A stretch of 64,000 bases of DNA from Candidatus Omnitrophota bacterium (GTDB lineage Bacteria > Omnitrophota > Omnitrophia > Omnitrophales > Aquincolibacteriaceae). The notes beneath the pieces were generated by a model that saw only the letters and a list, made by a program, of their open reading frames with translations, was not told the DNA's origin and did no database searches. This document shows positions 2,889 to 29,449 of the stretch, piece by piece (the first letter of the stretch is position 1; every line of letters starts with the position of its first letter). Made by a program: the position numbers and the translations under genes. The stretch covers positions 799 to 64,798 of the forward strand of contig JAFGHI010000063.1 of NCBI GenBank assembly GCA_016930235.1, in the 5' to 3' direction.

Positions 2889-2896
2889 AAAACAAG

Positions 2897-3280
2897 ATGA
2901 GCCTGAGCTTGTTGTCGAGCCAAAGGATTTACAAGCCTAGTCATTTTGAATCCCTGATAAAAAAAGGGAAATTCTTCAGAGGAAAGTTGCTAAATGCTTG
3001 GATCAATATGAAGGGGGAAGTCTGTCCGAGGGCAGCCCGCCCGATGATAGCTGTTATGATCAGCCGAAAGGTTGCACAAAGAGCAAACAAACGAAATTTA
3101 TGGAAGAGGAGAATTAAAGAGGCTTTTCGGCGGAATCAAAAGGAAATCAAAAGAGGGGTCGCCGTTCTGATCCAGGGCCGGAAAGTCAATGATCCCCCGC
3201 CCTATCGTGAGATAGAAAAAGAACTCATTTATTTTTTGAAGAAGGCGAAGGCATGGGAAAAGATCGAGGGAAGGAGTTAA
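2897..3280 (+). CDS. rnpA: RNase P protein component
   Basis: The 127-aa basic protein carries an RnpA-like KSHFESLIKKGKFFRG segment. Its position between rpmH and yidC is conserved. Confidence 0.85.
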   Translation: MSLSLLSSQRIYKPSHFESLIKKGKFFRGKLLNAWINMKGEVCPRAARPMIAVMISRKVAQRANKRNLWKRRIKEAFRRNQKEIKRGVAVLIQGRKVNDPPPYREIEKELIYFLKKAKAWEKIEGRS

Positions 3281-3283
3281 GAA

Positions 3284-4957: not shown

Positions 4958-5010
4958 ACAAGGTCGACATCTTCTCATACTCGAAAAATTAGGCAGGTTT
5001 CTTTTCAGAA

Positions 5011-6819: not shown

Positions 6820-6824
6820 AGCAC

Positions 6825-6840
6825 TGTTTCACGTGAAACA
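6825..6840. promoter_or_regulatory. parS site, perfect palindrome TGTTTCACGTGAAACA
   Basis: Exact match to the consensus ParB-binding site. Confidence 0.85.
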
Positions 6841-7006
6841 TTCTATTTGTTTAAAAATGCTATTGCTTGTTTGATCATCGTGAATATAATAAAGGAATAT
6901 CCAGTCAAGATAAAGATAAAGAAAAAAGGATTCTAGTCGAACTTAGAGATAGAAATGTCGTTCAATCGAATTAGAAAACCTCTTCTGAAGGAATCCTCAG
7001 TTGTAG

Positions 7007-7022
7007 TGTTTCACGTGAAACA
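7007..7022. promoter_or_regulatory. parS site, perfect palindrome TGTTTCACGTGAAACA
   Basis: This second exact copy sits 16 nt upstream of the parA start. Confidence 0.85.
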
Positions 7023-7037
7023 AAATATAGGTGATAT

Positions 7038-8084
7038 ATGAGCAAAATTGCATCTTTCTGCAATCAAAAAGGTGGAGTTGGGAAAACCACGTCAGTTATA
7101 AATTTGGCGTCGATTTTAGGCCAATACGGTAAAAAGGTTTTAGTTATAGATGTAGATTCACAAGCTAATGCTACAAGCGGCTTTGGGATTGATAAACCAA
7201 AAACAATAGAATCCACAACTTATCAACTCATTGTGGATAAGAGAGATCCATTGGAATTGATAAGAGAAACCGGGGTTAGTAATGTATCGCTTATAGCATC
7301 CAATTTTGAATTATCGGGAGCAGAGCTTGAATTGATATCACAAGAGAAGAGAGAATTCAGCCTAAAAGAGCAACTAAGTAAAATAGAAAATAATTATGAT
7401 TACATATTTATAGATTGCCCGCCATCGCTTGGCCTTATGACCATAAATGCTTTAGTAGCAAGCAGATATATAATAATTCCATTGCAATGCGAATATTACG
7501 CACTAGAGGGTCTTGGGCAGCTACTCCACACATATCATCTGGTAAAACAAAAATTGAATAGTGAGTTGGAGATAGGCGGTGTAATTTTAACAATGGCGGA
7601 CTTTCGAACAAATTTAACACAACAGGTAATAGAGGAAGTAAAAAGTTACTTTAAAGAAAAAGTATTTAAAAACATTATACCAAGAACTGTAAAACTATCG
7701 GAAGCACCAAGTTTTGGAAAACCTGCAGTCATCTATGATCCGCACAATAAGGGATCAGAAGGATATCGATCTGTAGGAATCGAGCTTTTGGAAAGATTTG
7801 AAGGGATAATTATCAATAGGAAAAATGAGGCAAACGGAATCAATGAGAGGGGCCATGAAGAGGGATTGAAAGAGCAAGCGCACGAGAATGATAAAGCGGA
7901 AGAGTCAGGAGAGGTCGCGCAATATGCGGAACCAGAAAAGATTGAAAACATAGGTAATTCTGATCGAGGAGATGTTTTGGTGAAGGACGAAAGAAAAGAA
8001 ATAATTAATACTGAAGAGCTTAATAAAGGCGGAAAAGTTTATGAACAAAACGCAGATGTAATCAAAGAGGAGATTCAACAATGA
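7038..8084 (+). CDS. parA: Chromosome partitioning ATPase ParA/Soj with a roughly 95-aa acidic C-terminal tail
   Basis: The deviant Walker A KGGVGKTT is present. The canonical ParA part ends near LLERFEG and is followed by a low-complexity E/K/N-rich extension. Confidence 0.9.
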   Translation: MSKIASFCNQKGGVGKTTSVINLASILGQYGKKVLVIDVDSQANATSGFGIDKPKTIESTTYQLIVDKRDPLELIRETGVSNVSLIASNFELSGAELELISQEKREFSLKEQLSKIENNYDYIFIDCPPSLGLMTINALVASRYIIIPLQCEYYALEGLGQLLHTYHLVKQKLNSELEIGGVILTMADFRTNLTQQVIEEVKSYFKEKVFKNIIPRTVKLSEAPSFGKPAVIYDPHNKGSEGYRSVGIELLERFEGIIINRKNEANGINERGHEEGLKEQAHENDKAEESGEVAQYAEPEKIENIGNSDRGDVLVKDERKEIINTEELNKGGKVYEQNADVIKEEIQQ

Positions 8085-8998
8085 AGAAAGCTCTCGGAAA
8101 AGGGCTGAATGCTTTAATACCGGACACTTATATTGAAGAATCGAAAATCGGGAGTATGACGGAGGAGAAAATTGATAGTAAGGGCGGAAAGGAGAATTTC
8201 AGAGAGAGCGGATTTGCGCTTATCCCCATAACAAAAATCAAAACAAACAAAGAACAACCGAGAAAAGAGTTTTCCCCAGAAGCCATAGAAGAACTTGCTA
8301 TGTCCATAAAAGAAAAGGGAATGCTTCAACCAATCATAGTAAAAAAAGGGGCGCAAGGAGATTATGATCTTGTTTGCGGGGAAAGAAGACTAAGAGCAGC
8401 CATATTGTGTGGATTAACCGAAGTCCCCGCAGTCATTAAAGATGTTGCCAAAGAAGAATTTTTCGAGTGGGCCCTGATCGAAAACATACAGAGAGAAGAT
8501 TTAAATCCAATCGAAGAAGCTGACGCTTATCGTCGCTTAATGGAGGAAAGGGTTATTGACCAAGAGGAAGTTGCAAAGCGAGTAGGCAAAGATCGCTCAA
8601 CGATAGCGAATATGGTTCGATTGTTAAGACTTCCCGAAGAAGTCAGAAATTATCTAGCATCGGGGCAGTTAACAGCGGGGCATGCGCGCGCAATTTTAGG
8701 GTTGCTGACCCCAGAACACCAGCGCCAAATGGCAAAGAGAATTATCGAAGAAACCTTGTCTGTTCGGCAAGTCGAGGCGATCGTCACAAGGAGTAACGCT
8801 CAAAAAAGGAGGCCTAAGAGAGCCAGGCATTTAAGCCCTGAAATCATTGACCTTGAACAAAGACTTGAGCGACACTTGGGGACGAAGGTTAAAATACACC
8901 CGAAGAAAAATCGCCGGGAGGGTCGGATCGAAATCACCTATTTTTCATTAGACGAACTGGATCATTGCTTGGGGAAAATCGGATTGCCTACTTCGTAA
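8081..8998 (+). CDS. parB: Chromosome partitioning protein ParB/Spo0J
   Basis: The product has a GKGLNALI N-terminus, a ParB box (LVCGERRLRAA) and an HTH. Its start overlaps the parA stop (ATGA). Confidence 0.9.
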   Translation: MKKALGKGLNALIPDTYIEESKIGSMTEEKIDSKGGKENFRESGFALIPITKIKTNKEQPRKEFSPEAIEELAMSIKEKGMLQPIIVKKGAQGDYDLVCGERRLRAAILCGLTEVPAVIKDVAKEEFFEWALIENIQREDLNPIEEADAYRRLMEERVIDQEEVAKRVGKDRSTIANMVRLLRLPEEVRNYLASGQLTAGHARAILGLLTPEHQRQMAKRIIEETLSVRQVEAIVTRSNAQKRRPKRARHLSPEIIDLEQRLERHLGTKVKIHPKKNRREGRIEITYFSLDELDHCLGKIGLPTS

Positions 8999-9032
8999 AT
9001 TAACACGAAGGGGGAGAGGCCCTCTCAGCAGG

Positions 9033-9204: not shown

Positions 9205-10485
9205 ATGCGGAAGAGATTGAAGCTGACGGTATTAGCTCTGTGTCTCGGAGTGCTTGCCGGTTGCGGCGGGGTTGCCGGGGATGATGGGAAAATCCCTATT
9301 AAAGTCGCATTCTGGGGAAGCCCGGATGAAATTGATATTATCTCAGATTCGATCAAAGATTGGCAGGTATCCCACCCGAATATTAAAGTTGTCTTTGAAC
9401 ATACTCCTTATACCGGATATGACAGTAAAATTCTAACACGTATTGCGGGAGGCGCTGCTCCCGATATTATCGCCACAGAAGTTGATTACTTTGTTACTTT
9501 TGCGACAAAGAACGTCCTTGAAGATTTAACGCCCTACCTAGAAGAAGATGCGACCTTTTCCCAAGACGATTTCTTCCCGACAATTCTCGACCGTTTTACG
9601 GTAAAGGGGCACTTGCTTGCCTTGCCTCGCGATGTTGCACCGTTCGCTTGTGTTTTTTACAACAAAGAGTTGTTCGATGAAATGGGGCTAGACTATCCTA
9701 AGGATGATTGGTCATGGGACGACCTTTTGCGCTTAGCTCGAGTTTTAACAAAGAAAGATGCGAATGGACGCATTACCCAATATGGATTCTATGGCTGGGC
9801 TTGGCAGAATTTCGTGTACGGAAATGGCGGAGCTATTGTGGATGACATCAAAAATCCCACAAGGACCCTTTTAGATTCACCGGAGTCAATCCAAGGCGTT
9901 CAATTTTATGCAGATCTCATCAATATATATGAAGTGATGCCGACGCCCGTCGTTCTTTCCAATCTAGGGATGGGCATTGATTTAATGTTTGCAAGCGGCC
10001 GCTTAGCCATGTTGTTGTCCGGGATTTGGGAAACTCCGGGGCTGAGGAATTATAAATTCGATTGGGACGTTGCCATGTTTCCTAAAAACCCTAAAGGGGT
10101 TCGCGCTTTTGGTTCGGGCGGATCCGGGTACGCCATTTTAAAGTCCTCCAAACACAAGGAAGAAGCCTGGGAAGTTATCAAAGCTTTGACTGGCCCGGAA
10201 GGGCAAGCCGAATTAGCTAAACGAGGCCTGGCTCAACCCTCACGCATCGCCGTTGCTAAGGGGAAAGCTTGGGCAAAAGATCCGTCACGGCCCGCAAATA
10301 AAAAGATGCTTAATGAGGCCGTTAATTACATCAAATTTAGCCCGTTTCACCCAAGATGGCGTGAAGTTGAGGAAAAGTATCTGGCGCAAAAACTAGACCT
10401 TGTTTTTAATGGCAGGAAACAGGCCTCGGAAGTGTTAACGGAATTAGCTCCCACAATAAACGAGATATTACAGAGCTCCAAATAA
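9205..10485 (+). CDS. Extracellular solute-binding lipoprotein (ABC sugar-binding family 1)
   Basis: A lipobox LAGC signal is followed by an SBP_bac_1-like sequence. No permease or ATPase genes are adjacent. Confidence 0.75.
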   Translation: MRKRLKLTVLALCLGVLAGCGGVAGDDGKIPIKVAFWGSPDEIDIISDSIKDWQVSHPNIKVVFEHTPYTGYDSKILTRIAGGAAPDIIATEVDYFVTFATKNVLEDLTPYLEEDATFSQDDFFPTILDRFTVKGHLLALPRDVAPFACVFYNKELFDEMGLDYPKDDWSWDDLLRLARVLTKKDANGRITQYGFYGWAWQNFVYGNGGAIVDDIKNPTRTLLDSPESIQGVQFYADLINIYEVMPTPVVLSNLGMGIDLMFASGRLAMLLSGIWETPGLRNYKFDWDVAMFPKNPKGVRAFGSGGSGYAILKSSKHKEEAWEVIKALTGPEGQAELAKRGLAQPSRIAVAKGKAWAKDPSRPANKKMLNEAVNYIKFSPFHPRWREVEEKYLAQKLDLVFNGRKQASEVLTELAPTINEILQSSK

Positions 10486-10507
10486 GCAAAGAGGAATTTG
10501 ATTTAAC

Positions 10508-12952
10508 ATGGTTGACGCCGCTGTCCGCCCAAAAAAGAAAAAAACAAAATCTCAGAACGAAGAAAGAAAATTCGCTTCAAAATACGGGTATTTCACTTCG
10601 AACGGACGTGAATATGTGATCACACGCCCAGATACCCCCAGGCCCTGGGTGAATGTTATCTGTAATGGAGAATATGGGATGATCGAATCCCAAACAGGGT
10701 CCGGATTTTCCTGGTTTCATAACTCCAATCTTTCAAGAATAACCCGTTGGGAACAGGATTTAATCAAAGACAGTTGGGGGAAATATATTTATGTTCGGGA
10801 TCGGGAAAACAAGAAATTCTGGTCTGCGACATGGAAGCCTTGTTGCCCCAAGTTTGATTTTTTCGAAGCGCGCCATGGACAGGGGTATTCCATCCTGAAG
10901 AGCGTATATCAAGGCATCGAAATAACCAAAACGGTTTTCGTCGATTCTCTGGAAACCGCAGAGGTCTGGCACCTGAAAGTCAAAAATATTGAAAGGAAGA
11001 AGAGAAAGCTAAGCCTTTTTTCCTACTTCGAATGGTGTTTGGGGAATGCTGCAGATACCCATCGTGAGTTCCAAAAGACCTTCATTGAGACAAGGATTGA
11101 CCGAAAGAATCATTGTCTTTGGGGGCGAAAAAGACCCGCCTTAGTCCCGGGTTTTATTTCCACGGGGCTTTCGGAATCTCCTCTCGAGGCGTTCCATGCA
11201 TGCAACATTAAACCGGTTGCTTATGAGGGGGACAAAGAAGCTTTCTTCGGGAGATATGGGGAGATTCAATCCCCGAAAGCTGTTCGAGACGGGCACCTTC
11301 AAGACACAGACGGAAAGTGGGTGGATTCCATCGCGAGTTTGCAGGTTGATCTTGATTTGGCTCCGGGCGAAACGAAAGATGTTGTTTTTATCCTCGGGGC
11401 AACAAAAACCCGGGAGCACTGTGAAAATATTATCCAAAAATATAAGAACGCCGCATCTGTTAACCGAGAGCTTCTAAAGGTAAAAAAGTTCTGGGATTCT
11501 CTTGTCAATGCAACAACGATCGAGACGCCTGATGAAGCCATGGATATCATGACCAATATCTGGCTCAAGTATCAGGCGATCTCGGCGCGGCTGTGGGCGC
11601 GATGTGCCTATTATCAATCAAGCGGAGGATTCGGATTCCGCGATCAACTTCAAGATTCGCAAATTTTCTTTAGTTTGAAACCGGAATTGGCAAAACGGCA
11701 GATTTTACTCCATTCTGAACAACAGTTTCCGGACGGGACAGTGCACCATTGGTGGCATCATGGAACCTCGGTGGGGGCCGTGACCCACATGACAGACGAT
11801 TTGCTATGGTTGGTTTTTCTTACGCTCAATTATCTAGATGAAACAGCTGATGAAACCCTTTTAGAAGAAAGAACAAAATTTTTGCCCGACCCCAAAACAA
11901 AAGAGATCACAGAAGGGGCCATCTATGATCACTGCGTCAGGGCTATTCGGAAAGTCCTTTCCCGCTGGTCTGAACGAGGGCTCCCTTTGATTGGAGAAGG
12001 TGATTGGAATGACGGGATGAGCCATGTTGGGCTGAAATGGAAGGGGGAGTCGATTTGGCTTGGGCATTTTTTGTATGGGATATTAAAACGTTTTGCACCT
12101 ATTGCTGAACAGCGCGGAGAAAAGAATCTTAGTGACGAGTTTCTTCAGCGGGCGGAAGCTTTAAAAGACGCGATTAACAAGTACGGTTGGGATGGGGAGT
12201 GGTATCTCCGCGCGACGCGGGATGACGGGCGTCCACTGGGGAGTCAGGTTTGTGATGAAGGCAAGATTTTCTTGAATGCGCAAACATGGGCTGTTATTCA
12301 TGGAACCGCGACACCTGATCGGGCAAAAAAAGCCATGGAATCGGTTGCCAAATACCTTTACCGGGAATACGGACCGCTTCTTTTCACGCCAGCTTTTTCG
12401 GTGACGGATCCAACGATCGGATATTTGTCGCGTTATGCACCGTCTGTTCGTGAAAATGGAGGTCTTTATACCCATGCTGGGACTTGGGCTATTCAAGCGG
12501 AATGTATCATGCGCGATGCCCAGAAGGCCTACTCCGCTTATAAGAGTTTTAATCCTATTTTGCGAGGGCTTGATCCGGATCTTTATTATTGTGAACCGTA
12601 TGTAACACCTGGGAATGTCGATGGCCCCGACTCACCTAACTTTGGCAGGGGAGGATGGACGTGGTATACCGGATCCGGGACTTGGTATTATGTTATTGTC
12701 ATTAACTGGCTTCTGGGTATCCGGCCAATTCGCGAAGGGCTGCTTATTGATCCGGTAATTCCTCAAGATTGGCCGGGTTTTCGCATCAAAAGATATTTTC
12801 GAGGATCGCTTTATGAGATCGACGTAAAGAATCCGAACAAGTCCGGACAAGGCGTTAGAGAAATTCGAGTTGATCAGAAAAAGCAGTATTCAAACGTTGT
12901 CCCAGCATTTCATGACGGGAAAACTCACAAGGTTTGGGTGATTTTAAAATAG
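10508..12952 (+). CDS. GH94-family glycoside phosphorylase (cellobiose/chitobiose/beta-glucan-oligosaccharide phosphorylase-like)
   Basis: The N-terminal YGYFTSNGREYVITRPDTPRPWVNVICN block and the GEGDWNDGMS catalytic region are present. The 814-aa size fits the family. Confidence 0.8.
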   Translation: MVDAAVRPKKKKTKSQNEERKFASKYGYFTSNGREYVITRPDTPRPWVNVICNGEYGMIESQTGSGFSWFHNSNLSRITRWEQDLIKDSWGKYIYVRDRENKKFWSATWKPCCPKFDFFEARHGQGYSILKSVYQGIEITKTVFVDSLETAEVWHLKVKNIERKKRKLSLFSYFEWCLGNAADTHREFQKTFIETRIDRKNHCLWGRKRPALVPGFISTGLSESPLEAFHACNIKPVAYEGDKEAFFGRYGEIQSPKAVRDGHLQDTDGKWVDSIASLQVDLDLAPGETKDVVFILGATKTREHCENIIQKYKNAASVNRELLKVKKFWDSLVNATTIETPDEAMDIMTNIWLKYQAISARLWARCAYYQSSGGFGFRDQLQDSQIFFSLKPELAKRQILLHSEQQFPDGTVHHWWHHGTSVGAVTHMTDDLLWLVFLTLNYLDETADETLLEERTKFLPDPKTKEITEGAIYDHCVRAIRKVLSRWSERGLPLIGEGDWNDGMSHVGLKWKGESIWLGHFLYGILKRFAPIAEQRGEKNLSDEFLQRAEALKDAINKYGWDGEWYLRATRDDGRPLGSQVCDEGKIFLNAQTWAVIHGTATPDRAKKAMESVAKYLYREYGPLLFTPAFSVTDPTIGYLSRYAPSVRENGGLYTHAGTWAIQAECIMRDAQKAYSAYKSFNPILRGLDPDLYYCEPYVTPGNVDGPDSPNFGRGGWTWYTGSGTWYYVIVINWLLGIRPIREGLLIDPVIPQDWPGFRIKRYFRGSLYEIDVKNPNKSGQGVREIRVDQKKQYSNVVPAFHDGKTHKVWVILK

Positions 12953-17128: not shown

Positions 17129-17157
17129 TTGACACCCCTAGGCTTTGATTGTATATT
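17129..17157 (+). promoter_or_regulatory. Sigma70-type promoter TTGACA-17-TATATT upstream of cysC
   Basis: TTGACA at 17129-17134 and TATATT at 17152-17157 precede a roughly 140-nt leader that contains an imperfect hairpin. Confidence 0.5.
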
Positions 17158-17302
17158 GACAAAGTTTAGCTCCCATTGAGAGATCATGAAATCTTCCTAA
17201 CCTTATCTGCCATAAGGAGTTAGGCCTGGCCAGTTTGATCTTGATGTTTTTCTGGGTTAGAAATTTGAAGGGAATTACAATTTTTTAAGGAGGTTTTAAA
17301 CA

Positions 17303-17884
17303 ATGAGTCATTCTGTTTTAGAGGCACAGAGCGTAAAATTGCTGAAAGGGGTTACAATCTGGTTTACAGGTCTTCCCAGTTCGGGGAAATCGACCATTGC
17401 CAACATTTTAGGGCGGGCGTTTCGAAAATGGGGCGTCAAATCCGAAATTCTAGACGGAGATGTTGTTCGGACAAATCTTAGCAAAGGGCTCGGTTTTTCT
17501 AAAGAAGACCGCGATATTAACATCAAAAGAATAGGTTTTGTTTGCCATCTCTTGACTCGCAACGATGTTGTTGCGATTGCCGCCGCTATTTCCCCTTATC
17601 GTGAAATTCGGGACTTTAATCGAAGAATGATCGGTAATTTTATGGAAGTTTATGTCCAAACATCGCTGGAAGAATGTGAAAAACGCGATGTCAAAGGACT
17701 TTATCAAAAAGCCAGATCAGGAGCCATTAAGGGATTTACCGGCGTTGATGACCCTTACGAAACGCCTCTGGCCCCCGAAGCGGTTTGCGAGACGGAAAAA
17801 GAAACTCCGGAAGAGTCCGCAAGCAAAGTCATTGCTCGAATGGAGGAGCTGGGGTATCTCCAAATTCAGGAAGCAGCCGTATAG
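17303..17884 (+). CDS. cysC: Adenylyl-sulfate (APS) kinase
   Basis: The P-loop GLPSSGKSTIA and the 193-aa APS kinase fold are present, preceded by a strong RBS AAGGAGG. Confidence 0.9.
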   Translation: MSHSVLEAQSVKLLKGVTIWFTGLPSSGKSTIANILGRAFRKWGVKSEILDGDVVRTNLSKGLGFSKEDRDINIKRIGFVCHLLTRNDVVAIAAAISPYREIRDFNRRMIGNFMEVYVQTSLEECEKRDVKGLYQKARSGAIKGFTGVDDPYETPLAPEAVCETEKETPEESASKVIARMEELGYLQIQEAAV

Positions 17885-17903
17885 TTGCCCGAAAAAGATT
17901 CGC

Positions 17904-18773
17904 ATGAATAAAATCGACCTGCATATTCACACAACGTGCTCAGACGGCTCTTACTCGCCTCTTGAGATTATGAAAAAGGCGAAGGCCGAAGGGATATGGC
18001 TTATTTCCGTGACGGATCATGATACTCTTTCAGGTTACGAGGAGTGTTGTCGGGAAGCCCGTCGTTTCGAAGTTCAGTATATCCCAGGTATTGAAATGAG
18101 CGCTCAGTTTGATCCTGGAACTCTGCATATTCTTGGATATTTTGTTAATCCGGGAAATGGTGAACTCCAACGGAAAATCCAGGAGGTTCAGCAGGCTAGA
18201 TTGGATCGCAATCCTCAGATCATTGAAAAGTTGAATTTCCATGGAGTTGAGATAACTTTGAAAGAGGTTCAAGCCGTGGCTTATGGCAGCGCTGGCGGAG
18301 GGCAAGAAGGTCAACAATTAGGGCGTCCTCATTTTGCGGAGACACTTCTGAGAAAAGGCTACGTCAAGACATATCAAGAAGCTTTTGAAAAATTTTTGGC
18401 GAAGGGGAAGATCGCCTATGTTGACAAGCGACGTTTGACATCCGAAGAGATCATCCAAGCGATTCATCAGGCAGGCGGCGTTGCTGTTGTGGCACACCCG
18501 AAACTTATGCGTCTTGGAGAAATTGCTTTAGAAGAAGCGCTCGAGAAAATGGTTGGGGAAGGGCTTGACGGGCTCGAGGTTTATAGCAGTTGTCATGGGG
18601 CCTCCGACGTTGCATCTTATCAAAAATTGGCGAAACGGTTCGGGTTGATTCAAACCGGCGGAAGCGATTTTCACGGGACCAAGAAACCGAATGTTCGATT
18701 GGGCGATATCGGGAAGGGTTTTGAGCTTCAAGAAGATATTTACGAAACGCTTCGCGCGAAATCGAAGATGTGA
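17904..18773 (+). CDS. PHP-domain phosphoesterase (candidate 3',5'-bisphosphate nucleotidase)
   Basis: The protein starts MNKIDLHIHTTCSDGS, the PHP metal-binding motif. The ORF-track entry 17652-18773 overlaps cysC in another frame, so the true start is the in-frame ATG at 17904. Confidence 0.8.
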   Translation: MNKIDLHIHTTCSDGSYSPLEIMKKAKAEGIWLISVTDHDTLSGYEECCREARRFEVQYIPGIEMSAQFDPGTLHILGYFVNPGNGELQRKIQEVQQARLDRNPQIIEKLNFHGVEITLKEVQAVAYGSAGGGQEGQQLGRPHFAETLLRKGYVKTYQEAFEKFLAKGKIAYVDKRRLTSEEIIQAIHQAGGVAVVAHPKLMRLGEIALEEALEKMVGEGLDGLEVYSSCHGASDVASYQKLAKRFGLIQTGGSDFHGTKKPNVRLGDIGKGFELQEDIYETLRAKSKM

Positions 18774-18809
18774 AACTTTAAATTCATTGACTGAAGGGAA
18801 GGAAAAGAA

Positions 18810-20003
18810 ATGGAAGATTTAATTCAACCGCATGGCGGGAAATTGATTTCAAAAGAACTGAGCGGGGAGGAAGCGAAAGAGGGGGTAAGAAAAGCCAAGG
18901 AGCTTAAGAAACTGGAACTGGCTCCCTATGAGGTTTCGGACTTGGAGATGATCGCTTCAGGAGCCATGAGCCCCTTGGAAGGTTTTATGGGCCAAGAACA
19001 AATGCAGTCCGTTCTAAAAAGAATGCGGCTGCCCAGCGGGCTCGTTTGGTCTTTGCCTGTTGTAAAGTCTGTGTCCGGAGAGGAGAAAAAATCTCTGAAG
19101 GTGGGGGAAGAAGTCGGATTAATCGATGGGGAAAGCAGAGAGGTTTTGGCGATTCTGAAGGTTGCGGAAATTTTCCCTCATGATAAAAAAGTTCACGCAA
19201 ACGAGACTTACCAAACTGAAGATCCGGCTCATCCTGGTGTGGCGCGGATTCTTTCTATGGAAGAGTTCCTTGTCGGGGGGGACATCCAATTAGTCCAAAA
19301 ACCGAAACACACAAAGTTTTTGAATTATCGACGAGACCCCAAGGATACGCGGGCACTTTTTATTCAGAAGAAGTGGAAGCGGGTGGTGGCTTTCCAAACA
19401 CGCAATCCCATTCACCGGGCGCATGAGTATTTAACAAAATGCGCTCTTGAAATGACTGATGGCTTAATGATCCATCCTCTTGTCGGGCAAACTAAAGGGG
19501 ACGATATCTCCGCGGAAGTCAGGATGAAATGCTACGAGGTTCTGATGGAGAAATATTATGCCAATGACCGCGTGCTATTATCTGTTTTTCCCGCAGCGAT
19601 GCGCTATGCGGGTCCTAGGGAAGCGATTTTCCATGCCGTGGTCAGAAAAAATTATGGCTGCACACATTTCATTGTCGGACGGGATCATGCCGGGGCCTCC
19701 AAGCCGGACGGGAAACCTTATTATGGGTCATTTGATGCGCAGCTGATTTTTAACAATTTTGAGCCGGAAGAAATTGGGATCACGCCGATTTTCTTTGATT
19801 TTACTTTTTACTGCAAGACTTGTCAGGGGATGGTGTCTCCCAAAACATGCCCTCATGATAAAAGTCATCATCTCAGCTTAAGCGGGACCAAGGTGCGTGA
19901 AATGCTCCGCCAAGGGGAAATTCCGCCGCCCGAATTCACCCGCCCTGAAGTTGCCCGGATTTTGATCGAAGCGATGAAGGAAAAAAGCGCAGTAAGTTCG
20001 TAA
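18810..20003 (+). CDS. sat: Sulfate adenylyltransferase (homo-oligomeric ATP sulfurylase)
   Basis: The QTRNPIHRAHE motif (HxxH) and the 397-aa length match the family. Confidence 0.9.
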   Translation: MEDLIQPHGGKLISKELSGEEAKEGVRKAKELKKLELAPYEVSDLEMIASGAMSPLEGFMGQEQMQSVLKRMRLPSGLVWSLPVVKSVSGEEKKSLKVGEEVGLIDGESREVLAILKVAEIFPHDKKVHANETYQTEDPAHPGVARILSMEEFLVGGDIQLVQKPKHTKFLNYRRDPKDTRALFIQKKWKRVVAFQTRNPIHRAHEYLTKCALEMTDGLMIHPLVGQTKGDDISAEVRMKCYEVLMEKYYANDRVLLSVFPAAMRYAGPREAIFHAVVRKNYGCTHFIVGRDHAGASKPDGKPYYGSFDAQLIFNNFEPEEIGITPIFFDFTFYCKTCQGMVSPKTCPHDKSHHLSLSGTKVREMLRQGEIPPPEFTRPEVARILIEAMKEKSAVSS

Positions 20004-20013
20004 GGAGGATCTT

Positions 20014-20970
20014 ATGACGACTGGTTCTGTAAAAATGTTTACGAAACCGCTGGTCGCGAAAAATGTTCTCGAGTTGATTTTTAACACGCCTTTGGTGAAA
20101 TTGAACAAGATTGTGCAGCCCGGAATGGCAAATGTTTTCGGTAAGCTTGAGTTTTTTAGTCCGGGCGGGAGCGTGAAGGACAGGATCTGCTATAGCATGA
20201 TTCGCCAGGCAGAAGAGAAGAACTTGATCAAACAAGATACGATTATTGTCGAGCCGACGTCGGGCAATACAGGGGTTGGATTAGCTCTGGTTTGTGCGGT
20301 CAAAGGTTATCGGTTGATTTTAACGATGCCGGAGACTATGAGCATTGAGAGACGGCAATTACTCAAAAGATATGGCGCTGAAGTCGTATTGACGCCTGGC
20401 GAAGAAGGGATGAAAGGGGCTGTCAAGAAAGCCGAAGAACTAACCCAGCAATATAAGAACAGCTTTATGCCTCAGCAATTCAATAATCCGGCCAACCCCG
20501 AAATTCATAAACAAACCACAGCCGAAGAAATTTTAGCAGCCTTAGATGGAAAAATCGATGCCTTTGTGGCAGGCGTTGGGACCGGCGGGACGATTACAGG
20601 GTGCGGAGAACTTTTTAAGAAGAAGAATTCAAAGATCAAAATTATTGCCGTCGAGCCAAAAAACTCGCCCGTGCTTTCAGGCGGCCAACCCGGCAAACAT
20701 AAAATTCAAGGGATAGGGGCAGGTTTTGTTCCTGAAGTTTTGAACCGCGAAATCCTCGATGAAATTGTACAAGTTGATGATCAGGATGCCTGGGATATGG
20801 CCATGGAGCTTGTGAAGCAAGAAGGTATTCTAAGCGGGATCTCCACAGGGGCGATTTTTGTTGCTGCGCTTAAGGTTGCTAAGGAGCTTGGCCCCGGCAA
20901 AAATGTCGTAGGCATTGTTTGTGACACGGGAGAACGTTATCTCAGCATGGACGAAGTTTTCCGGGTTTGA
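20014..20970 (+). CDS. cysK: Cysteine synthase (O-acetylserine sulfhydrylase)
   Basis: The PLP lysine motif SVKDRI and the TSGNTG loop are present. Confidence 0.9.
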   Translation: MTTGSVKMFTKPLVAKNVLELIFNTPLVKLNKIVQPGMANVFGKLEFFSPGGSVKDRICYSMIRQAEEKNLIKQDTIIVEPTSGNTGVGLALVCAVKGYRLILTMPETMSIERRQLLKRYGAEVVLTPGEEGMKGAVKKAEELTQQYKNSFMPQQFNNPANPEIHKQTTAEEILAALDGKIDAFVAGVGTGGTITGCGELFKKKNSKIKIIAVEPKNSPVLSGGQPGKHKIQGIGAGFVPEVLNREILDEIVQVDDQDAWDMAMELVKQEGILSGISTGAIFVAALKVAKELGPGKNVVGIVCDTGERYLSMDEVFRV

Positions 20971-20992: not shown

Positions 20993-22045
20993 ATGAAAGC
21001 GTTTATATCGAATTTGAAAGAGCGGATTTTTACGGGCGGCGAAATCCTCTTTAACGAGGCCATGAAGCTTGCCGAGATTGCTGACGAACAGAGTTTTCAT
21101 CTCCTCCTTGAAACGGCCCACGATATCACTTCCCGGTTTTGTCCGAAGGAACCGGATCTATGTTCTCTTATCAATGCGAAGAGCTATCTTTGCGGCGAAG
21201 ACTGTAAGTTTTGTGCGCAATCGTCAAAATATCAAACCGGAGTTCATCGTTATCCCCTCATCACAGTTGACGAAGCGTTAGGGAAGGCAAAGCTCTTTGA
21301 AAAAGAGGGCGTCAAGACTGTTTGCCTTGTCACAAGCGGTGGCACCTTGAGCGAAAAAGAATATGAGCAAGTCCTTCGGATGATCGAGGCCATCAAGAAA
21401 GAAACAAGAATGGAGGTTGATGGATCTTTGGGATTTTTGTCTATCGAACAAGTCAAGCGTTTGAGAGAAACGGGATTGAGAAGGATTAATAATAACTTGC
21501 AATGTTCAAAGGAATTCTATCCGGAGATCGTTTCGACCCATCGCTATGAAAAACGGCTTGAAACCATGGATAACCTCCAAGAAGGCGGGATCGAAATTTG
21601 TTCGGGCGGAATTTTTAATCTTGGGGAATCCCGGGAGGACAGAATCCGAATGGCTTTCGAATTGAAACCTTTTCGGCCTAAGTGTTTGCCGATTAATATC
21701 CTGAATCCCAGGCCGGGCACGCCTCTTGAAAATCAACCCCGGATGGATCCTAAGGAGATTCTGAAGACAGTGGCCGTTTATCGGTTTATACATCCGACAG
21801 CAAATATAAAACTGGCAGGAGGCCGGGAAGTCAACCTTTCACTTGAGGAGCAGGCCCTTGCGCTTAGGGGCGGGGCTAATGGATTGGTCGTTTGCGGGTA
21901 TTTGACAACGGCAGGGAATCCGCTAGAAGAGGATATGGTATTATTAAGGCAAGCAGGCTTTGATACGGCAAGGCATCCCCGCGCATGCGGTCATGCTGGA
22001 GAAACTCAAGCGATACATCATTCAATTGGTTTATCAACATCTTGA
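20993..22045 (+). CDS. bioB: Biotin synthase
   Basis: The radical-SAM CGEDCKFCAQS motif and the YNHNL-like region (INNNLQ) are present. The start was chosen at the in-frame ATG 20993, after the cysK stop. Confidence 0.9.
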   Translation: MKAFISNLKERIFTGGEILFNEAMKLAEIADEQSFHLLLETAHDITSRFCPKEPDLCSLINAKSYLCGEDCKFCAQSSKYQTGVHRYPLITVDEALGKAKLFEKEGVKTVCLVTSGGTLSEKEYEQVLRMIEAIKKETRMEVDGSLGFLSIEQVKRLRETGLRRINNNLQCSKEFYPEIVSTHRYEKRLETMDNLQEGGIEICSGGIFNLGESREDRIRMAFELKPFRPKCLPINILNPRPGTPLENQPRMDPKEILKTVAVYRFIHPTANIKLAGGREVNLSLEEQALALRGGANGLVVCGYLTTAGNPLEEDMVLLRQAGFDTARHPRACGHAGETQAIHHSIGLSTS

Positions 22046-22770
22046 ATAAAATTCTTTCCCAGAAAATCATTTTAATTACCGGCGGGACAAGTCAACTGGG
22101 TAGAATTTATGTGACAAAGGCCCTCGACGAAGGAGCTAAGGTTTATTTCACTTATTTCAAACAAAAAGATCTGGCCAAGGAGCTTTCCCAGAAAGGGGCT
22201 CATGGATTTGAGCTTAACCTTGCCGACACCCCAAGCTTGGATCAGTTTGTGAAATCCTTTAGGGAGAAGGAGAAATCCCTGGATGTTCTAATTCATAATG
22301 CGGCAGCTGTCCGGGATGGGATGATCCAAAATATGAGCGAAGAAGCTTGGGATTACGTTTTAAATGTGAATCTCAAAGCGCCGTTTTATCTTTCAAAAAA
22401 ATTGTTGCCGCTCCTTTTTCAAAGGAAATCGTCGAAAATATTTATGCTGACAAGTCGCTTAGCCCTTAAAGGGGCACCCGGCGTTGCAAATTACGCGGCC
22501 TCTAAAGCTGGGCTCATTGCAGTCGTAAAAACAATGGCCCAGGAGCTTGGTCGAAAAAAAGTTTTGGTGAATGCGGTCAATCCGGGATTTATGAAGTCCC
22601 CGATGACGGCGGATGCACCGGAGTCAGTGATTCGCCAAAATTTGCAGGATAGCTCGCTCGGCCAGTTTTCGAATCCTGAAGAGGTGGCAGATTTTTTGAT
22701 TTATTTGTGCTCGGATAAAATGACTCAGGTGACCGGCCAGGTTTTTCACTTTGATTCGAGGAAGATATGA
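21985..22770 (+). CDS. Short-chain dehydrogenase/reductase, FabG-like 3-oxoacyl-ACP reductase paralog
   Basis: The product has the Rossmann motif ILITGGTSQLG and the YxxxK catalytic pair (YAASK). The true start is probably TTG at about 22042, overlapping the bioB stop. Confidence 0.8.
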   Translation: MRSCWRNSSDTSFNWFINILNKILSQKIILITGGTSQLGRIYVTKALDEGAKVYFTYFKQKDLAKELSQKGAHGFELNLADTPSLDQFVKSFREKEKSLDVLIHNAAAVRDGMIQNMSEEAWDYVLNVNLKAPFYLSKKLLPLLFQRKSSKIFMLTSRLALKGAPGVANYAASKAGLIAVVKTMAQELGRKKVLVNAVNPGFMKSPMTADAPESVIRQNLQDSSLGQFSNPEEVADFLIYLCSDKMTQVTGQVFHFDSRKI

Positions 22771-23972
22771 GAAGAAGAGTTGTAATTACAGGAATGGGGG
22801 TTGTCTCGCCCATAGGAAATACGGCGGTAACTTTCTTAGAGAGCTTAAAGAATGGACGCTCAGGAGAAGGCGCCATTACAAGTTTTGATGCGACAAATTT
22901 CCCGGTCAAAAGAGCTTTTGAGGTTAAACAATTTGATGCAAAAAGATATAAGACCCACATGATGGATCCTTTCATCCAGTATGCCATGGGGGCGGCGACG
23001 GAGGCGGTTGAAGATGCCTGTTTTGATATGAATGCTGTAGATCATTTCCGGATCGGTTTGGCAATCGGCTCAAGCAAGGGGGGAGTTCACACCATTGATC
23101 GGTTTAAAGAGCGGTTTGAAAAACATCCGAGCGCCATTTTAGGGGCTCGGATTTACACTAATGCCGTTCCAAATTTTGCGGCTCAATGGATTGCCAGAAG
23201 ATGGGATATCGGAGGCCCGGCGAAATGTTATGTTGCAGCTTGCGCGACAGGGACAGTGGGTATTATCGAAGGTATCCGGATGGTTGAAGCCGGTGATGTG
23301 GATTATTGTCTTGCGGGGGCGAGCGATGCGTCGATTGTTCCTCTTATGCTGGCAGGGTATCGGAATATGAAGGCCTTATCGCCTGACGCGATCCGGCCCT
23401 TTGATCTTAGCCGTAACGGGTTCGTAATTGGAGAAGGAGCAGGAATTGTTTTTTTGGAAACAATTGAAAGTGCGCAAGCCCGGAATGCAGCAATTTACGG
23501 AGAAGTTGCCGGGTACGCTTATGGAAATGATTGTTATCACCCTGTTCAATTCGATCCTTGCGGAGATGCCTTGGCTCGAACGCTCGATCTTTTATTTAGG
23601 AAATGTGCGTTATCAAAAAGAGATGTTGATTATGTCAATCTCCACGGGACTGGAACAGTTGCGGGGGATCTTTATGAAGCAAGGCAGCTTCGAAAATTTT
23701 TTGGGGAAAAAACGGACAACATTTCGATGAGTGCGACAAAATCTATGACAGGGCACATGTTGGGAGCGTCGGGTGCTGTGGAATTGATTGCGGCCATCCT
23801 GGCCATAAAAGAGGATTTCGTTCCCCCAACGATCGGGATCGAGAAACAAGATCCGGAGTGTGACATCGATATCACTTGCCTTGGAGCAAAAGAGAGAAAA
23901 ATCAAGGCCGCTCTTTCCCTCTCAATGGGATTTGGCGGGCACATTGCGACGATTGCGATCAAGAAAATATGA
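22767..23972 (+). CDS. Beta-ketoacyl-ACP synthase I/II-like (FabF/FabB paralog)
   Basis: The active-site Cys lies in AACATG, the His residues in HGTGT and TGHMLGASG. Both ends overlap neighbouring genes (ATGA). Confidence 0.85.
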   Translation: MRRRVVITGMGVVSPIGNTAVTFLESLKNGRSGEGAITSFDATNFPVKRAFEVKQFDAKRYKTHMMDPFIQYAMGAATEAVEDACFDMNAVDHFRIGLAIGSSKGGVHTIDRFKERFEKHPSAILGARIYTNAVPNFAAQWIARRWDIGGPAKCYVAACATGTVGIIEGIRMVEAGDVDYCLAGASDASIVPLMLAGYRNMKALSPDAIRPFDLSRNGFVIGEGAGIVFLETIESAQARNAAIYGEVAGYAYGNDCYHPVQFDPCGDALARTLDLLFRKCALSKRDVDYVNLHGTGTVAGDLYEARQLRKFFGEKTDNISMSATKSMTGHMLGASGAVELIAAILAIKEDFVPPTIGIEKQDPECDIDITCLGAKERKIKAALSLSMGFGGHIATIAIKKI

Positions 23973-25123
23973 GTCCTCTAACCCTTCAAGAAGAACTGGC
24001 AGGAATTGCTTCCCAAGATTTATTCAGAAAGATTCGAACCCTCGAACGGATTGACAGTACGCGAGCGGTTTTAAACGGGCGCGAAATTCAACTTTTTTGC
24101 AGCAATGACTATTTGGGGCTTTCTTATCACCCCCGGATCATTGCGGTTGTTCAAAAAGCCGTTTCAATTTATGGGGTGGGGGCAGGCGCGGCGAGACTTA
24201 TTTCCGGGAGTACCAATCTTCATGAAAACTTGGAGAAGAGACTCGCGGAATTGAAACAGAAGGAAAAAGCACTGCTTTTTACAACGGGGTATCTCGCGAA
24301 TCTCGGGATTCTTACAGCGCTAGCTGGCAAAGAAGACATCATTGTGATGGATAAGTTATGTCATGCCTCGATTGTAGATGGAGCCCGGCTTTCAGGCGCT
24401 ACAATACGAGTTTTCCCTCACAAAAACTATGCGCGCCTGGAAGAAATCTTGTCCAAGGCAGTTTCGTTTAGAAGGCGGCTTGTTGTTACGGATACTGTAT
24501 TCAGCATGGATGGTGATTTGGCCGATATCCCCGAATTGATTCACCTAAAGAAAAAGTTTGATGCATTACTCATCGTAGACGACGCCCATGGCACGGGGGT
24601 TTTGGGAGCCACGGGCCAAGGAGCGACTGAGGATATCAACGGGGCAGAGGAAGTCGATATTGTGATGGGGACGCTTTCCAAAGCCTTAGGTTGTCTTGGC
24701 GGGTTTGCTTGCGGGAACAAAGCGCTTATCGATTATTTAATCAATTTTGCACGGCCTTTTATTTTTGCGACGGCATTGCCCCCCATGTGTTGTGCTGCCT
24801 CGATCGAAGCGATTAAGATTCTCAAAGAAGAGCCATTGCTACGAGAAAGATTATGGAACAATGTAAGCCTCGCTCGTGGGAACCTTAAGAATTTAGGGTT
24901 TGATTTTTCTCAATTGGCATCGCCGATTCTTCCCCTTATTGTAGGGGAAGAAAAAAGAGCTGTTGAAATATCGGAGTCTCTTCTTCAAGAAGGGTTCCTC
25001 GTTCCCGCTGTTCGAACCCCGACCGTCCCGCGGGGGAAAGCCAGGTTACGTCTTACGATTAGTGCTTCTCATACTCAACGGGATATAGAAAAGATTTGCA
25101 CTGTATTGAAAAAAACGCTTTAA
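23969..25123 (+). CDS. bioF: 8-amino-7-oxononanoate synthase
   Basis: This is a PLP-dependent alpha-oxoamine synthase (TLSKALG lysine region). The start ATG overlaps the upstream stop. Confidence 0.85.
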   Translation: MSPLTLQEELAGIASQDLFRKIRTLERIDSTRAVLNGREIQLFCSNDYLGLSYHPRIIAVVQKAVSIYGVGAGAARLISGSTNLHENLEKRLAELKQKEKALLFTTGYLANLGILTALAGKEDIIVMDKLCHASIVDGARLSGATIRVFPHKNYARLEEILSKAVSFRRRLVVTDTVFSMDGDLADIPELIHLKKKFDALLIVDDAHGTGVLGATGQGATEDINGAEEVDIVMGTLSKALGCLGGFACGNKALIDYLINFARPFIFATALPPMCCAASIEAIKILKEEPLLRERLWNNVSLARGNLKNLGFDFSQLASPILPLIVGEEKRAVEISESLLQEGFLVPAVRTPTVPRGKARLRLTISASHTQRDIEKICTVLKKTL

Positions 25124-25219: not shown

Positions 25220-25972
25220 ATGCGGCATATAGTTGTTTTGCCCTACTATTCGGATGAAGAAGTCCAGGTCTTCCATGAAATTGCAGACATATGGAAGGTG
25301 CTGACAAAGACGGAATGCGATTATACCTTTTTGCTTGTGTCTAGGTTTGACCGCAAACCCGATGAGGGATTACTGAGAAAATATTTAGAAATCGCACCGA
25401 CACAAAGTATTCGATCCACTACCGAGGGCCGAGGGATCAAAAAGCCTGACGTGGGATTTAAAGTTGAAGGGCCTACGGCGATGTTTTGGGATGCGGTTGA
25501 ATTTGTCAGCCAAAATTTTCCCCATGACGGAGGATTTATGCTTTGGTTTGAATATGATATGGTCCCTCTGGTCCCCGATTGGTTGGATCGGCTGGAAAAG
25601 GAGTGGAAAATCAGCCGGTACGTATTGATGGGGAAGTTGATTGACCGAGAATGGGCCAAAGAAAATATTCCTAGCCAATCAGATAATATCGTCAAACATA
25701 TCAACGGTGGGGCATGTTATTCAAAAGATTTTATTCGTAAAGTGCCTAAGCAAAAATTTAATATGGCAATGCCGTGGGATATGCAGGTTTATCGATATAT
25801 TTCTTCGTGGCATAATCGGTTCAGGCTTCGATATAAAACAACGAATTTGATCGAATTTCGCTATGCTAGTTCCTCATTGGAAAAGCCACCTTTACATGAT
25901 AGCGCTATCCTTCATGGGGTCAAGGACGGTTCAGCTCGGGCGTATATCCACGAGAAAGTCCAAAGTCCCTAA
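25220..25972 (+). CDS. Hypothetical protein, possibly GT-A-like nucleotide-sugar transferase fold
   Basis: The 250-aa product has a WFEYDMVP segment (DxD-like) and HINGGACY. No confident family assignment is possible. Confidence 0.5.
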   Translation: MRHIVVLPYYSDEEVQVFHEIADIWKVLTKTECDYTFLLVSRFDRKPDEGLLRKYLEIAPTQSIRSTTEGRGIKKPDVGFKVEGPTAMFWDAVEFVSQNFPHDGGFMLWFEYDMVPLVPDWLDRLEKEWKISRYVLMGKLIDREWAKENIPSQSDNIVKHINGGACYSKDFIRKVPKQKFNMAMPWDMQVYRYISSWHNRFRLRYKTTNLIEFRYASSSLEKPPLHDSAILHGVKDGSARAYIHEKVQSP

Positions 25973-26049
25973 GCCGTCACTCCTAAGCTGCGATCTTGTA
26001 GGTTCCGAGGAGATGCTGTAAGATACACACCTTTGGAGCCAATATCCCG

Positions 26050-26826
26050 ATGAAATTCACACAACAACGGTTAAGCCAGGTTCTCGATCGGAATCAGCAA
26101 CGGATCGCTGCGGAAAAGAAAATTCTGGGAGTTTTGGCTATTCTCAATTTGCTGGGCCTTGCGTTTTCAGTCTCAGTTATATTTTTTTATGTCCCCAGCC
26201 TGCCCGAACTTTTTTCTCCCCCGGCTCACGCGGCAATCGCCGTATTCATGTGTATGTTTGCAGCGAATTTGCTTTTGATCTGGATGATCATTCGATCCAG
26301 GCGTGCGTGGACCGATGCTGCGAAAAATATTGAATGCGATAAGCTGACAGGGGCTTTGCATTGGCGGAGTTTTCTTGAAGTTTTGGACGAAGAGGTGCGT
26401 CGGGCGGGACGTTATCGATACCCTTTAAGTTTATGTCTCTTAGATTTAGATGATTTTCAGTCGGCAAATAATAATTTTGGGACCACTCATGGGGATGAGA
26501 TCTTACAACGTTTCTCAAAATTCATGATGGGAACGGTTCGTTTTACGGATACGTTTGCGAGGTATGACCGGGATGAATTTCTTGTGCTTTTACCGCATAC
26601 CGATATCGTCAGGGCTCAGAAATTTGCTTCCCGTACTTTGATGCAGTCGATCGAGAGAATCGATAGCAGTTTCAGTGCCGGTCTGACGCTGTTTCAAGTC
26701 GGAGAGAAAAAAGAACAATTTTTAGAGAGGGCCGCCTTAGCGCTGAAGCAAGCCAAGCGGGAAGGGAAGAAAAGGATTCAATGTGTGATTGCTGAAGGAG
26801 GAATGCAAACGGCGCTGTCGTTATAG
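26050..26826 (+). CDS. Membrane-anchored GGDEF-domain protein with a degenerate active site (DRDEF) and an intact I-site (RFTD)
   Basis: Two N-terminal TM segments precede a GGDEF fold (DKLTGALHWRSF ... LLDLDDFQSANNNFG). RYDRDEF replaces RYGGEEF, but the RxxD motif five residues upstream is retained. Confidence 0.75.
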   Translation: MKFTQQRLSQVLDRNQQRIAAEKKILGVLAILNLLGLAFSVSVIFFYVPSLPELFSPPAHAAIAVFMCMFAANLLLIWMIIRSRRAWTDAAKNIECDKLTGALHWRSFLEVLDEEVRRAGRYRYPLSLCLLDLDDFQSANNNFGTTHGDEILQRFSKFMMGTVRFTDTFARYDRDEFLVLLPHTDIVRAQKFASRTLMQSIERIDSSFSAGLTLFQVGEKKEQFLERAALALKQAKREGKKRIQCVIAEGGMQTALSL

Positions 26827-26879
26827 GCATTCTGGGGTTTCTTCACAAGGAAGTTCATTAGAAGGGTTTCCTCGAAGAG

Positions 26880-27275
26880 ATGAAGAAAAAACGAATTATT
26901 GTATTATGCACGGTTGTGGCGGCTATTATATTTATCCCCTCGATGGTTTATGCTCAAGTGGGCGGAGTGAACATCCAACACGTCGCGGCAAAACAGAGGA
27001 CGCCCAGCAAATATGTGCTAACGGCCGAGCTTGTTAATGACAGCGGAGAAGATAAGGAAGTTATTTTAAGGGGGCAGATTACCTTTTATGACAAAGCCGC
27101 CCCCAAGGGTGATTTGCCGGTGACATCTGTGAGGAAAGATGTCTCGGTTGTTTTACGAAAGTACGAAACCCGGAATTTTGAGACGTTGCTAATCATAGAA
27201 GGAACCCCGCCGGTTGGTTCTCTTCGGATGGAACCCTCGCTTCGCATCCGACGTTCTCGCGAATGGAATTATTAG
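26880..27275 (+). CDS. Small secreted hypothetical protein
   Basis: An N-terminal signal peptide (MKKKRIIVLCTVVAAIIFIPSMVYA) is followed by a roughly 105-aa mature part with no recognisable motif. Confidence 0.5.
   Translation: MKKKRIIVLCTVVAAIIFIPSMVYAQVGGVNIQHVAAKQRTPSKYVLTAELVNDSGEDKEVILRGQITFYDKAAPKGDLPVTSVRKDVSVVLRKYETRNFETLLIIEGTPPVGSLRMEPSLRIRRSREWNY

Positions 27276-27309: not shown

Positions 27310-29449
<2,140 letters not shown>

Follow-up and report, generated by a model that had tools for sequence, protein, structure and literature searches.

Biotin synthesis begins with the making of the pimelate moiety, a stage that varies among bacteria and is still incompletely known. In Escherichia coli, pimeloyl is built by fatty-acid-type condensation and reduction cycles on acyl carrier protein (ACP); the BioC-BioH route uses a methyl-ester disguise and only the housekeeping enzymes FabB/F, FabG, FabZ and FabI. 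BioZ of alpha-proteobacteria is a condensing-enzyme paralogue encoded in the bio operon, which takes a primer with a free carboxylate, glutaryl-CoA from lysine catabolism, and passes 3-oxopimeloyl-ACP into type II fatty acid synthesis (FAS II); it holds the carboxylate through hydrogen bonds from Ser84 and Ser287 (PMC7645780, PMC8024396, PMC12625853). Two distinct pimelate routes have been reported, BioZ in 2020 and BioE in 2025. An extended bio operon of Desulfovibrio encodes homologues of an ACP, a beta-ketoacyl-ACP synthase (KAS), a reductase and a dehydratase, for which a new pimeloyl route was proposed (Rodionov 2004, PMC545781). Random barcode transposon sequencing (RB-TnSeq) has since shown that biotin synthesis in Desulfovibrio requires DVU2560-2563 and a nitroreductase-like gene; the authors found comparable clusters nowhere but in Desulfobacterota and Chrysiogenetes, and stated that the biochemistry was still to be defined (Trotter 2023, PMC10102598). 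Here we describe a bio cluster in a 64-kb stretch of a Candidatus Omnitrophota metagenome-assembled genome (the whole stretch analysed, hereafter the window), in which a FabG-like short-chain dehydrogenase/reductase (SDR) and a FabF-like KAS lie between bioB and bioF. It is proposed, with a probability of about 65%, that these two enzymes constitute a minimal, methyl-ester-free route to pimeloyl-ACP that would borrow its ACP, dehydratase and enoyl reductase from FAS II.

The cluster begins with four genes:

20993..22045, plus strand: bioB, biotin synthase, 350 aa; ATG start, TGA stop (TIGR00433, 351 bits against a cut-off of 225)
22042..22770, plus strand: FabG-like SDR (bio-linked 3-oxoacyl reductase), 242 aa; TTG start within the bioB stop (TTGA)
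22767..23972, plus strand: FabF-like KAS (beta-ketoacyl synthase of the KAS II fold), 401 aa; ATG start within the SDR stop (ATGA)
23969..25123, plus strand: bioF, 8-amino-7-oxononanoate synthase, 384 aa; ATG start within the KAS stop (ATGA; TIGR00858, 465 bits against 426)

BioB is matched by the Radical_SAM and BATS domains. Both bioB and bioF score above the NCBI equivalog cut-offs, and the SDR and the KAS score below those for FabG and FabF. Direct inspection of the open reading frames revealed a four-base overlap at all three junctions (TTGA, ATGA and ATGA), and the gene calls of the public contig agree on the boundaries, including the 242-aa SDR. A preliminary description of this stretch had pointed to the same overlaps and taken them to imply one translationally coupled unit; the overlaps stand and so does coupling within the window, but the arrangement is not universal, since the SDR and KAS genes are separated in some relatives. 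The same description had mentioned fab-like insertions in bio clusters of other lineages. This precedent is real (PMC545781) and now has genetic evidence behind it, although its chemistry is still not established (PMC10102598).

Our bioinformatic analysis of the KAS suggests a FabF-type condensing enzyme with an altered acyl pocket. Its best family match is FabF (TIGR03150, 405.5 bits, under the cut-off of 493.75; PRK07314, 385.6 against 387), and it shows about 40% identity to Bacillus subtilis FabF and 35-40% to FabF overall. The AlphaFold2 model (pLDDT 95.8) superposes on FabF structures with a TM-score of 0.96 and a root-mean-square deviation of 1.5 Å, and a domain scan of the protein found no ACP_syn_III domain. 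Cys159, His293, Lys325, His330 and the gatekeeper Phe389 align to FabF Cys163, His303, Lys335, His340 and Phe400, respectively; the columns of the first four are invariant in both alignments made, so that the Cys-His-His triad is complete, as had been claimed. The pocket was compared between 165 members of the clade to which this KAS belongs and 10 FabFs, with the E. coli FabF sequence verified against PDB 6okg. In FabF, Ile108 and Phe202 form the "back gate" of the acyl pocket, and changes in gate residues shift chain-length specificity and antibiotic resistance (bioRxiv 10.1101/2021.02.13.431092; also PMC4606726). Both gate positions are replaced in the window enzyme; the codons of the active-site Cys and of the two gate residues are as follows:

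23241..23243, plus strand: codon for the active-site Cys159 of the KAS, whose column aligns to FabF Cys163
23076..23078, plus strand: codon for KAS Lys104, at the position of FabF Ile108 (back gate); Lys in 165/165 clade members
23358..23360, plus strand: codon for KAS Tyr198, at the position of FabF Phe202 (second back-gate residue); Tyr in 98% of the clade

In the FabFs compared, the first gate position is Ile, Met, Leu or Val and the second is Phe throughout. The Lys104 column was fixed through a HMMER alignment to B. subtilis FabF and its I108F mutant (4ls6), which differ from each other at exactly that column. Next to the gate, FabF Gly105 and Gly107 are Ser in the clade, which turns GSGIGG into SSSKGG (GSSKGG in the window copy). 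Further substitutions are Phe132 to Arg128 (in 91% of the clade), Ile148 to Arg144 and Glu191 to Asp187, and five residues are deleted after residue 205. The SSSKGG motif may serve annotators as a signature separating the bio-specific KAS from FabF.

The SDR has changed in a comparable manner. FabG is its best family match (TIGR01830, 190.1 bits, under the cut-off of 297.75); it is about 30% identical to E. coli FabG and retains the tetrad Asn110, Ser138, Tyr151 and Lys155. Its glycine motif is TGGT[SG]xLG (TGGTSQLG in the window copy, without FabG Arg15), where FabG has TGxxxGIG. The position after the catalytic Ser, hydrophobic in FabG, is an Arg in the window SDR:

22456..22458, plus strand: codon for SDR Arg139, beside the catalytic Ser138

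This Arg is present in 17/18 bio-linked SDRs and in 0/34 other FabG-like SDRs, where the residue is Val, Ile or Thr. Residues specific to the family are Arg139 (98%), a C-terminal Arg240 in a Ser-Arg motif (100%) and Asn180. At FabG positions 129 and 172, the ACP-docking Arg residues of FabG, the SDR carries Lys within the 57-66% family, which would fit an ACP-bound substrate. Taken together, the pocket changes of the KAS and the SDR appear to fit acyl chains with a free terminal carboxylate; we read them so because both enzymes have gained basic or polar pocket residues in an operon that needs only a supply of pimeloyl-ACP.

The association of the pair with biotin genes is conserved. The window KAS and SDR have identical counterparts in a Candidatus Omnitrophica metagenome-assembled genome. 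A genome scan revealed 16 further Omnitrophota loci with a KAS 55-64% identical to that of the window, and the conserved order is cysC, cysK, bioB, SDR, KAS, bioF, a degenerate-GGDEF membrane protein, a small secreted protein, bioA, bioD and mnmA, in which the membrane protein and the secreted protein are optional. The most compact form is a six-gene operon, bioB-SDR-KAS-bioF-bioA-bioD (L114). The KAS gene adjoins bioB and/or bioF in 22/23 distinct relatives with usable flanks (41-66% identity), and bioF lies immediately 3' of the clade KAS in 18 of the 21 relatives with downstream sequence. In two loci (L003 and L007) no bioB is present within 8 kb of a KAS-bioF-bioA-bioD block; in such split clusters the KAS remains with bioF and the SDR with bioB. 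A search of 1.8 billion representatives, in which the whole Omnitrophota family falls into one 50% cluster, was dominated by giant polyketide synthases and otherwise gave about 14-15 usable single-domain neighbours (41-48% identity), 11 of them with the SSKGG motif; a profile search with the distant members mostly returned the same Omnitrophota family. The contigs of two neighbours (P0145 and P0248) are too short for gene context, and the following gene orders were read for six others:

P0197: PHP-bioB-SDR-KAS
P0299: bioB-SDR-cysD-cysN-KAS-bioF
P0162: bioB-KAS
P0131: SDR-KAS-bioF-bioA
P0142 (L118): PHP-bioB-SDR-KAS-bioF-methyltransferase-methyltransferase-RRM-bioA-bioD
P0206 (L117): SDR-KAS, no bio gene within 9 kb

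As a control, 87 other FabF-like loci were examined, 79 from a generic-pattern metagenome scan (80 loci) and the others from the genome scan. All Lys-bearing KAS genes scored alongside (23/23), together with two family members whose motif was not parsable, have bioB or bioF no more than 6 kb away and none is accompanied by acpP, whereas among the KAS genes without the Lys there are 0/87 with bioB or bioF within 6 kb and 59/87 with acpP directly upstream; these linkage counts are not phylogenetically independent. The linkage holds down to 41% identity. A neighbour-joining tree built from 122 sequences groups all 33 sampled KAS that carry the Lys in a single clade, which contains nothing else. 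One Omnitrophota contig (L024), with a KAS 36% identical to that of the window, was considered as a housekeeping fabF locus and rejected; it is truncated and continues with a fatty-acyl-reductase-like gene. These data bear on the explanation that the pair are housekeeping fabG and fabF genes lying beside bio genes by chance. The best family matches, the intact catalytic residues and the shared fold are what such an explanation would predict, but we consider it hardly credible: both enzymes fall under the equivalog cut-offs, the long-chain acyl pocket has other residues at its two back-gate positions, acpP is never adjacent and the KAS clade is distinct. The window pair thus resembles housekeeping FabF and FabG in fold and catalytic residues and differs from them in the Lys/Tyr gate, Arg139, the C-terminal Arg, the bio linkage and the missing acpP, in agreement with the earlier suspicion that it is specific to the bio cluster and not housekeeping.

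None of bioC, bioH, bioW, bioI, bioZ, an ACP gene or fabZ was found in the window, where most genes outside the cluster were assigned by reading translations and not by a hidden Markov model scan. A tblastn search with AcpP gave no match in the window or in the bio-linked loci checked, and its positive controls were recovered. FabZ likewise gave no tblastn match, and no hot-dog domain is present among the called genes of the loci. With BioH there was no tblastn match either, and neither the window nor the loci showed an alpha/beta-hydrolase, esterases being a diverse group; among the clade loci checked, none has acpP, fabZ or bioH nearby. Two statements of the preliminary description are borne out in this way: that no bioC, bioH, bioW, bioI or bioZ is visible in the window, and that the ACP, dehydratase and enoyl reductase are not encoded locally, the latter holding by tblastn in the window and in the bio-linked loci of relatives. 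A survey of 176 complete Omnitrophota genomes describes the biotin pathway as "uniformly partial" and contains no report on bioC or bioH (bioRxiv 10.64898/2026.06.07.730766).

A pair dedicated to building pimelate, as suspected earlier, is the best available explanation for the linkage in 22/23 relatives and the charged or polar pocket residues in both enzymes. From gene order, family membership, linkage and residue substitutions we infer that the SDR and the KAS are dedicated biotin enzymes, which would build the pimeloyl (C7 dicarboxylate) thioester consumed by BioF from acyl substrates carrying a free terminal carboxylate, not a methyl ester made by BioC. For the KAS, the predicted reaction is condensation of malonyl-ACP and a glutaryl thioester into 3-oxopimeloyl-ACP, with a halt at C7; the Lys/Tyr gate would hold the terminal carboxylate of a short primer and shut out longer chains. 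The SDR would reduce the 3-oxo-omega-carboxyacyl-ACP products, and AcpP, FabZ and FabI of housekeeping FAS II would supply the ACP, the dehydratase and the enoyl reductase. Such borrowing is feasible, because E. coli FabG, FabA and FabI turn the free-carboxyl C7 product of BioZ into pimeloyl-ACP in vitro (PMC7645780). The presence of accA at 61261-62319 of the window indicates that malonyl-CoA can be made and that a biotin-dependent enzyme is in use in the organism.

As the source of the glutaryl group we slightly favour the same pair iterating from malonyl-ACP (C3 to C5 to C7) over a metabolic glutaryl-CoA primer, because the C7 round by itself would not call for a dedicated reductase, ACP-bound primers are preferred by FabF-type enzymes and no cluster comes with a gene for glutaryl-CoA supply. 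A metabolic primer would make the system a BioZ-like variant, nested within our proposal, in which glutaryl-CoA or glutaryl-ACP is elongated once to 3-oxopimeloyl-ACP and the SDR acts on C7 only; we regard this as possible but rather unlikely. The back gate of FabF lies an estimated six to eight carbons from the catalytic Cys, judging from the literature on gate mutants, and gate depth better suits the carboxylate of a C5 than of a C3 primer. BioZ itself shows that one condensation with glutaryl-CoA is enough and that FAS II completes the product. The variant also avoids priming a Cys-His-His ketosynthase with undecarboxylated malonate, which is chemically demanding. Gate depth and malonate priming therefore count against an iterative origin. 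On the other side, FabF-type enzymes normally use acyl-ACP and not acyl-CoA primers, no gene for glutaryl-CoA supply was seen in any cluster examined, and E. coli FabG manages the C7 intermediate, yet an SDR with Arg139 is conserved.

Other observations weigh against the proposal of a dedicated two-enzyme route as a whole. The placement of Lys104 and Arg139 relative to a bound substrate is that predicted by alignment to FabF and FabG, and Arg128 is not kept in distant clade members. No SDR lies between bioB and the KAS in three loci (L004, L014 and L031), and cysD and cysN lie between the SDR and the KAS in four (L002, L005, L015 and L029). One distant relative (L117, 582-2497) has a Lys-bearing KAS without any bio gene within 9 kb; this KAS keeps the FabF-like Phe202 and Glu191, and the SDR paired with it is FabG-like, with Ile139 and a TGASRGIG motif. 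The L117 pair may represent an intermediate, or else a sister group with another specialisation. It could also be taken, together with the intervening cysD and cysN and with the position of the bio genes within a cysC-PHP-sat-cysK block, to mean that the pair is unrelated to pimelate, makes some other short acyl product or has a role in sulfur assimilation, and merely travels in a cofactor and sulfur island. We think this very unlikely, as in loci without any cys genes (L027/L028, L031 and L032) the KAS still stands beside bioB, the SDR or bioF, the split clusters keep the KAS with bioF and the SDR with bioB, and the L114 operon consists of only bio genes plus the pair.

The remaining point against the proposal comes from L118, whose KAS is 44% identical to that of the window and where two methyltransferase genes (10370-11689) follow bioF. 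The first encodes a protein of 224 aa whose best NCBIfam match is BioC (68 bits against a cut-off of 185). The L118 KAS keeps the gate Lys and Tyr, and the L118 SDR has Gln in place of Arg139. In the window, the sole class I S-adenosylmethionine (SAM) methyltransferase (52601-53647, with an N-terminal Trm112-like zinc ribbon) also has BioC as its top NCBIfam matches (54 bits against 342 and 37.7 against 185); it was rejected as BioC and is taken as a generic methyltransferase, its scores being far under the cut-offs. These two enzymes are what favours an alternative in which the SDR and KAS are elongation enzymes of the methyl-ester route, the gate hydrogen-bonds the ester, and a BioC-type methyltransferase and an esterase are encoded elsewhere. 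Both, however, score far under the BioC cut-off (68 and 38 bits against 185), and they are homologous neither to each other nor to anything in the other loci. Moreover, tblastn revealed no esterase-like gene in those bio-linked loci that were checked, housekeeping enzymes suffice in organisms with BioC and BioH, which leaves dedicated copies unexplained, and an invariant buried Lys suits an anion more than a neutral ester. The methyl-ester alternative is in our view improbable. The L118 methyltransferase is a single observation, which could be without meaning or could reflect a return to ester chemistry in one lineage; that the operon containing it also has Gln for Arg139 fits a lineage-specific switch.

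Compared with the described systems, the proposed free-carboxylate route has its closest characterised functional analogue probably in BioZ. Both involve a condensing-enzyme paralogue in a bio operon, and the window KAS is predicted, as is known for BioZ, to use a free-carboxylate primer and deliver 3-oxopimeloyl-ACP into FAS II. BioZ, however, is a KAS III enzyme with the FabH fold and a Cys-His-Asn triad, whereas the window KAS has the FabF fold, a Cys-His-His triad and a dedicated reductase. The BioC-BioH route relies on housekeeping enzymes where the window has private copies with charged pockets. The nearest precedent is the Desulfovibrio vulgaris cluster (DVU2558-DVU2565), compared here by its published description; it also places a FabF-like KAS and a FabG-like reductase in a bioB/F/A/D cluster of an anaerobe without recognisable bioC or bioH; a methyl-ester-free elongation to pimeloyl-ACP has been proposed there too, and the genes are genetically required. 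It belongs to another phylum and has another gene order. A dedicated ACP and two FabZ-like dehydratases are encoded in it, and it depends on a nitroreductase-like protein; no counterpart of any of these was found in the window or near the clade KAS of those bio-linked relatives that were checked. The Omnitrophota cluster would be an ACP-less and dehydratase-less minimal version of the fab-like pimelate route.

Our literature searches found no description of a bio-linked KAS/SDR module in Omnitrophota. On balance we lean towards an undescribed minimal pimelate pathway of Omnitrophota and some uncharacterised relatives, in which a KAS with a Lys/Tyr anchor and an Arg-bearing ketoreductase would act on housekeeping ACP, without a methyl ester, a dedicated ACP or a dedicated dehydratase. 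The fab-like route of Desulfovibrio, noticed in 2004, has genetic support without biochemistry, and the Omnitrophota version cuts it to two genes. With only two genes and testable determinants (Lys104, Tyr198, Arg139 and Arg240), it is a convenient system for establishing the chemistry. If true, the proposal would correct reconstructions that score Omnitrophota as biotin-deficient, and it would add a further independent answer to the problem of a charged tail in a greasy pocket, beside BioC/BioH, BioI/BioW, BioZ and BioE.

The remaining biotin genes of the window lie downstream of bioF, after three intervening genes:

25220-25972, plus strand: hypothetical protein, 250 aa, between bioF and the degenerate-GGDEF gene
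26050-26826, plus strand: membrane protein with a degenerate GGDEF domain (YDRDEF in place of GGDEF)
26880-27275, plus strand: small protein, 131 aa, with an N-terminal signal peptide; no family match
27310..28707, plus strand: bioA, SAM-dependent 7-keto-8-aminopelargonate (KAPA) aminotransferase (TIGR00508, 561 bits against a cut-off of 405)
28718..29449, plus strand: bioD, dethiobiotin synthase (TIGR00347, 164 bits against a cut-off of 83)

The three genes at 25220-27275 are not core to the system; the compact operons L010 and L114 lack them and have bioF directly against bioA. For the hypothetical protein, searches of Pfam, NCBIfam and PDB gave no match, and none of the fetched loci encodes a relative; having neither a family match nor a counterpart in relatives, it was rejected as a part of the system, and it is an insertion peculiar to the window genome. 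The degenerate-GGDEF membrane protein is kept between bioF and bioA in about 12 Omnitrophota loci and is missing from the compact operons; it is probably not a cyclase, because YDRDEF replaces GGDEF. The 131-aa signal-peptide protein is kept directly 5' of bioA in L004, L005, L007, L008 and L013, with 37-46% identity. Another insertion is seen in L002 (2559-7154), where the SDR is parted from cysD-cysN-KAS by genes for a type I restriction-modification methylase and an AAA ATPase, together with others that look mobile; the junction between SDR and KAS can accommodate large insertions in the bio cluster.

On the 5' side of bioB is a packed run of cysC, a PHP protein gene, sat and cysK with gaps of at most 36 bp. 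A scan for BirA operators found no site with four or fewer mismatches, an Rfam scan of 15-31 kb gave no match, and promoter and terminator scans gave counts not above those of shuffled sequences; the sole good sigma-70-like site is at 17129-17157, 5' of cysC. The bio genes lie inside a sulfate-assimilation block (17129-20970 in the window), as they also do in L004, L005, L010, L012, L015, L029 and L114. The PHP phosphoesterase of this block is possibly a pAp phosphatase, and its gene keeps its place beside bioB even without cys genes (L027 and L118). In relatives, a ThrC-like PALP enzyme, a ThiS/MoaD-like carrier and a NIL-domain protein are encoded between cysK and bioB.

Elsewhere in the window, positions 1-9000 are a chromosomal replication origin region, with dnaA at 1093-2493 on the minus strand followed on the plus strand by rnpA, yidC, mnmG, parA and parB, and the GC skew switches sign near 2 kb. 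The gene at 46917-49328 encodes a polytopic membrane protein of 803 aa, which has a long soluble region at its C terminus and weakly matches nucleoside triphosphate/diphosphate (NTP/NDP) exchange transporters (TIGR00769, 40 bits); this may be of interest given the host-dependent lifestyle proposed for Omnitrophota.

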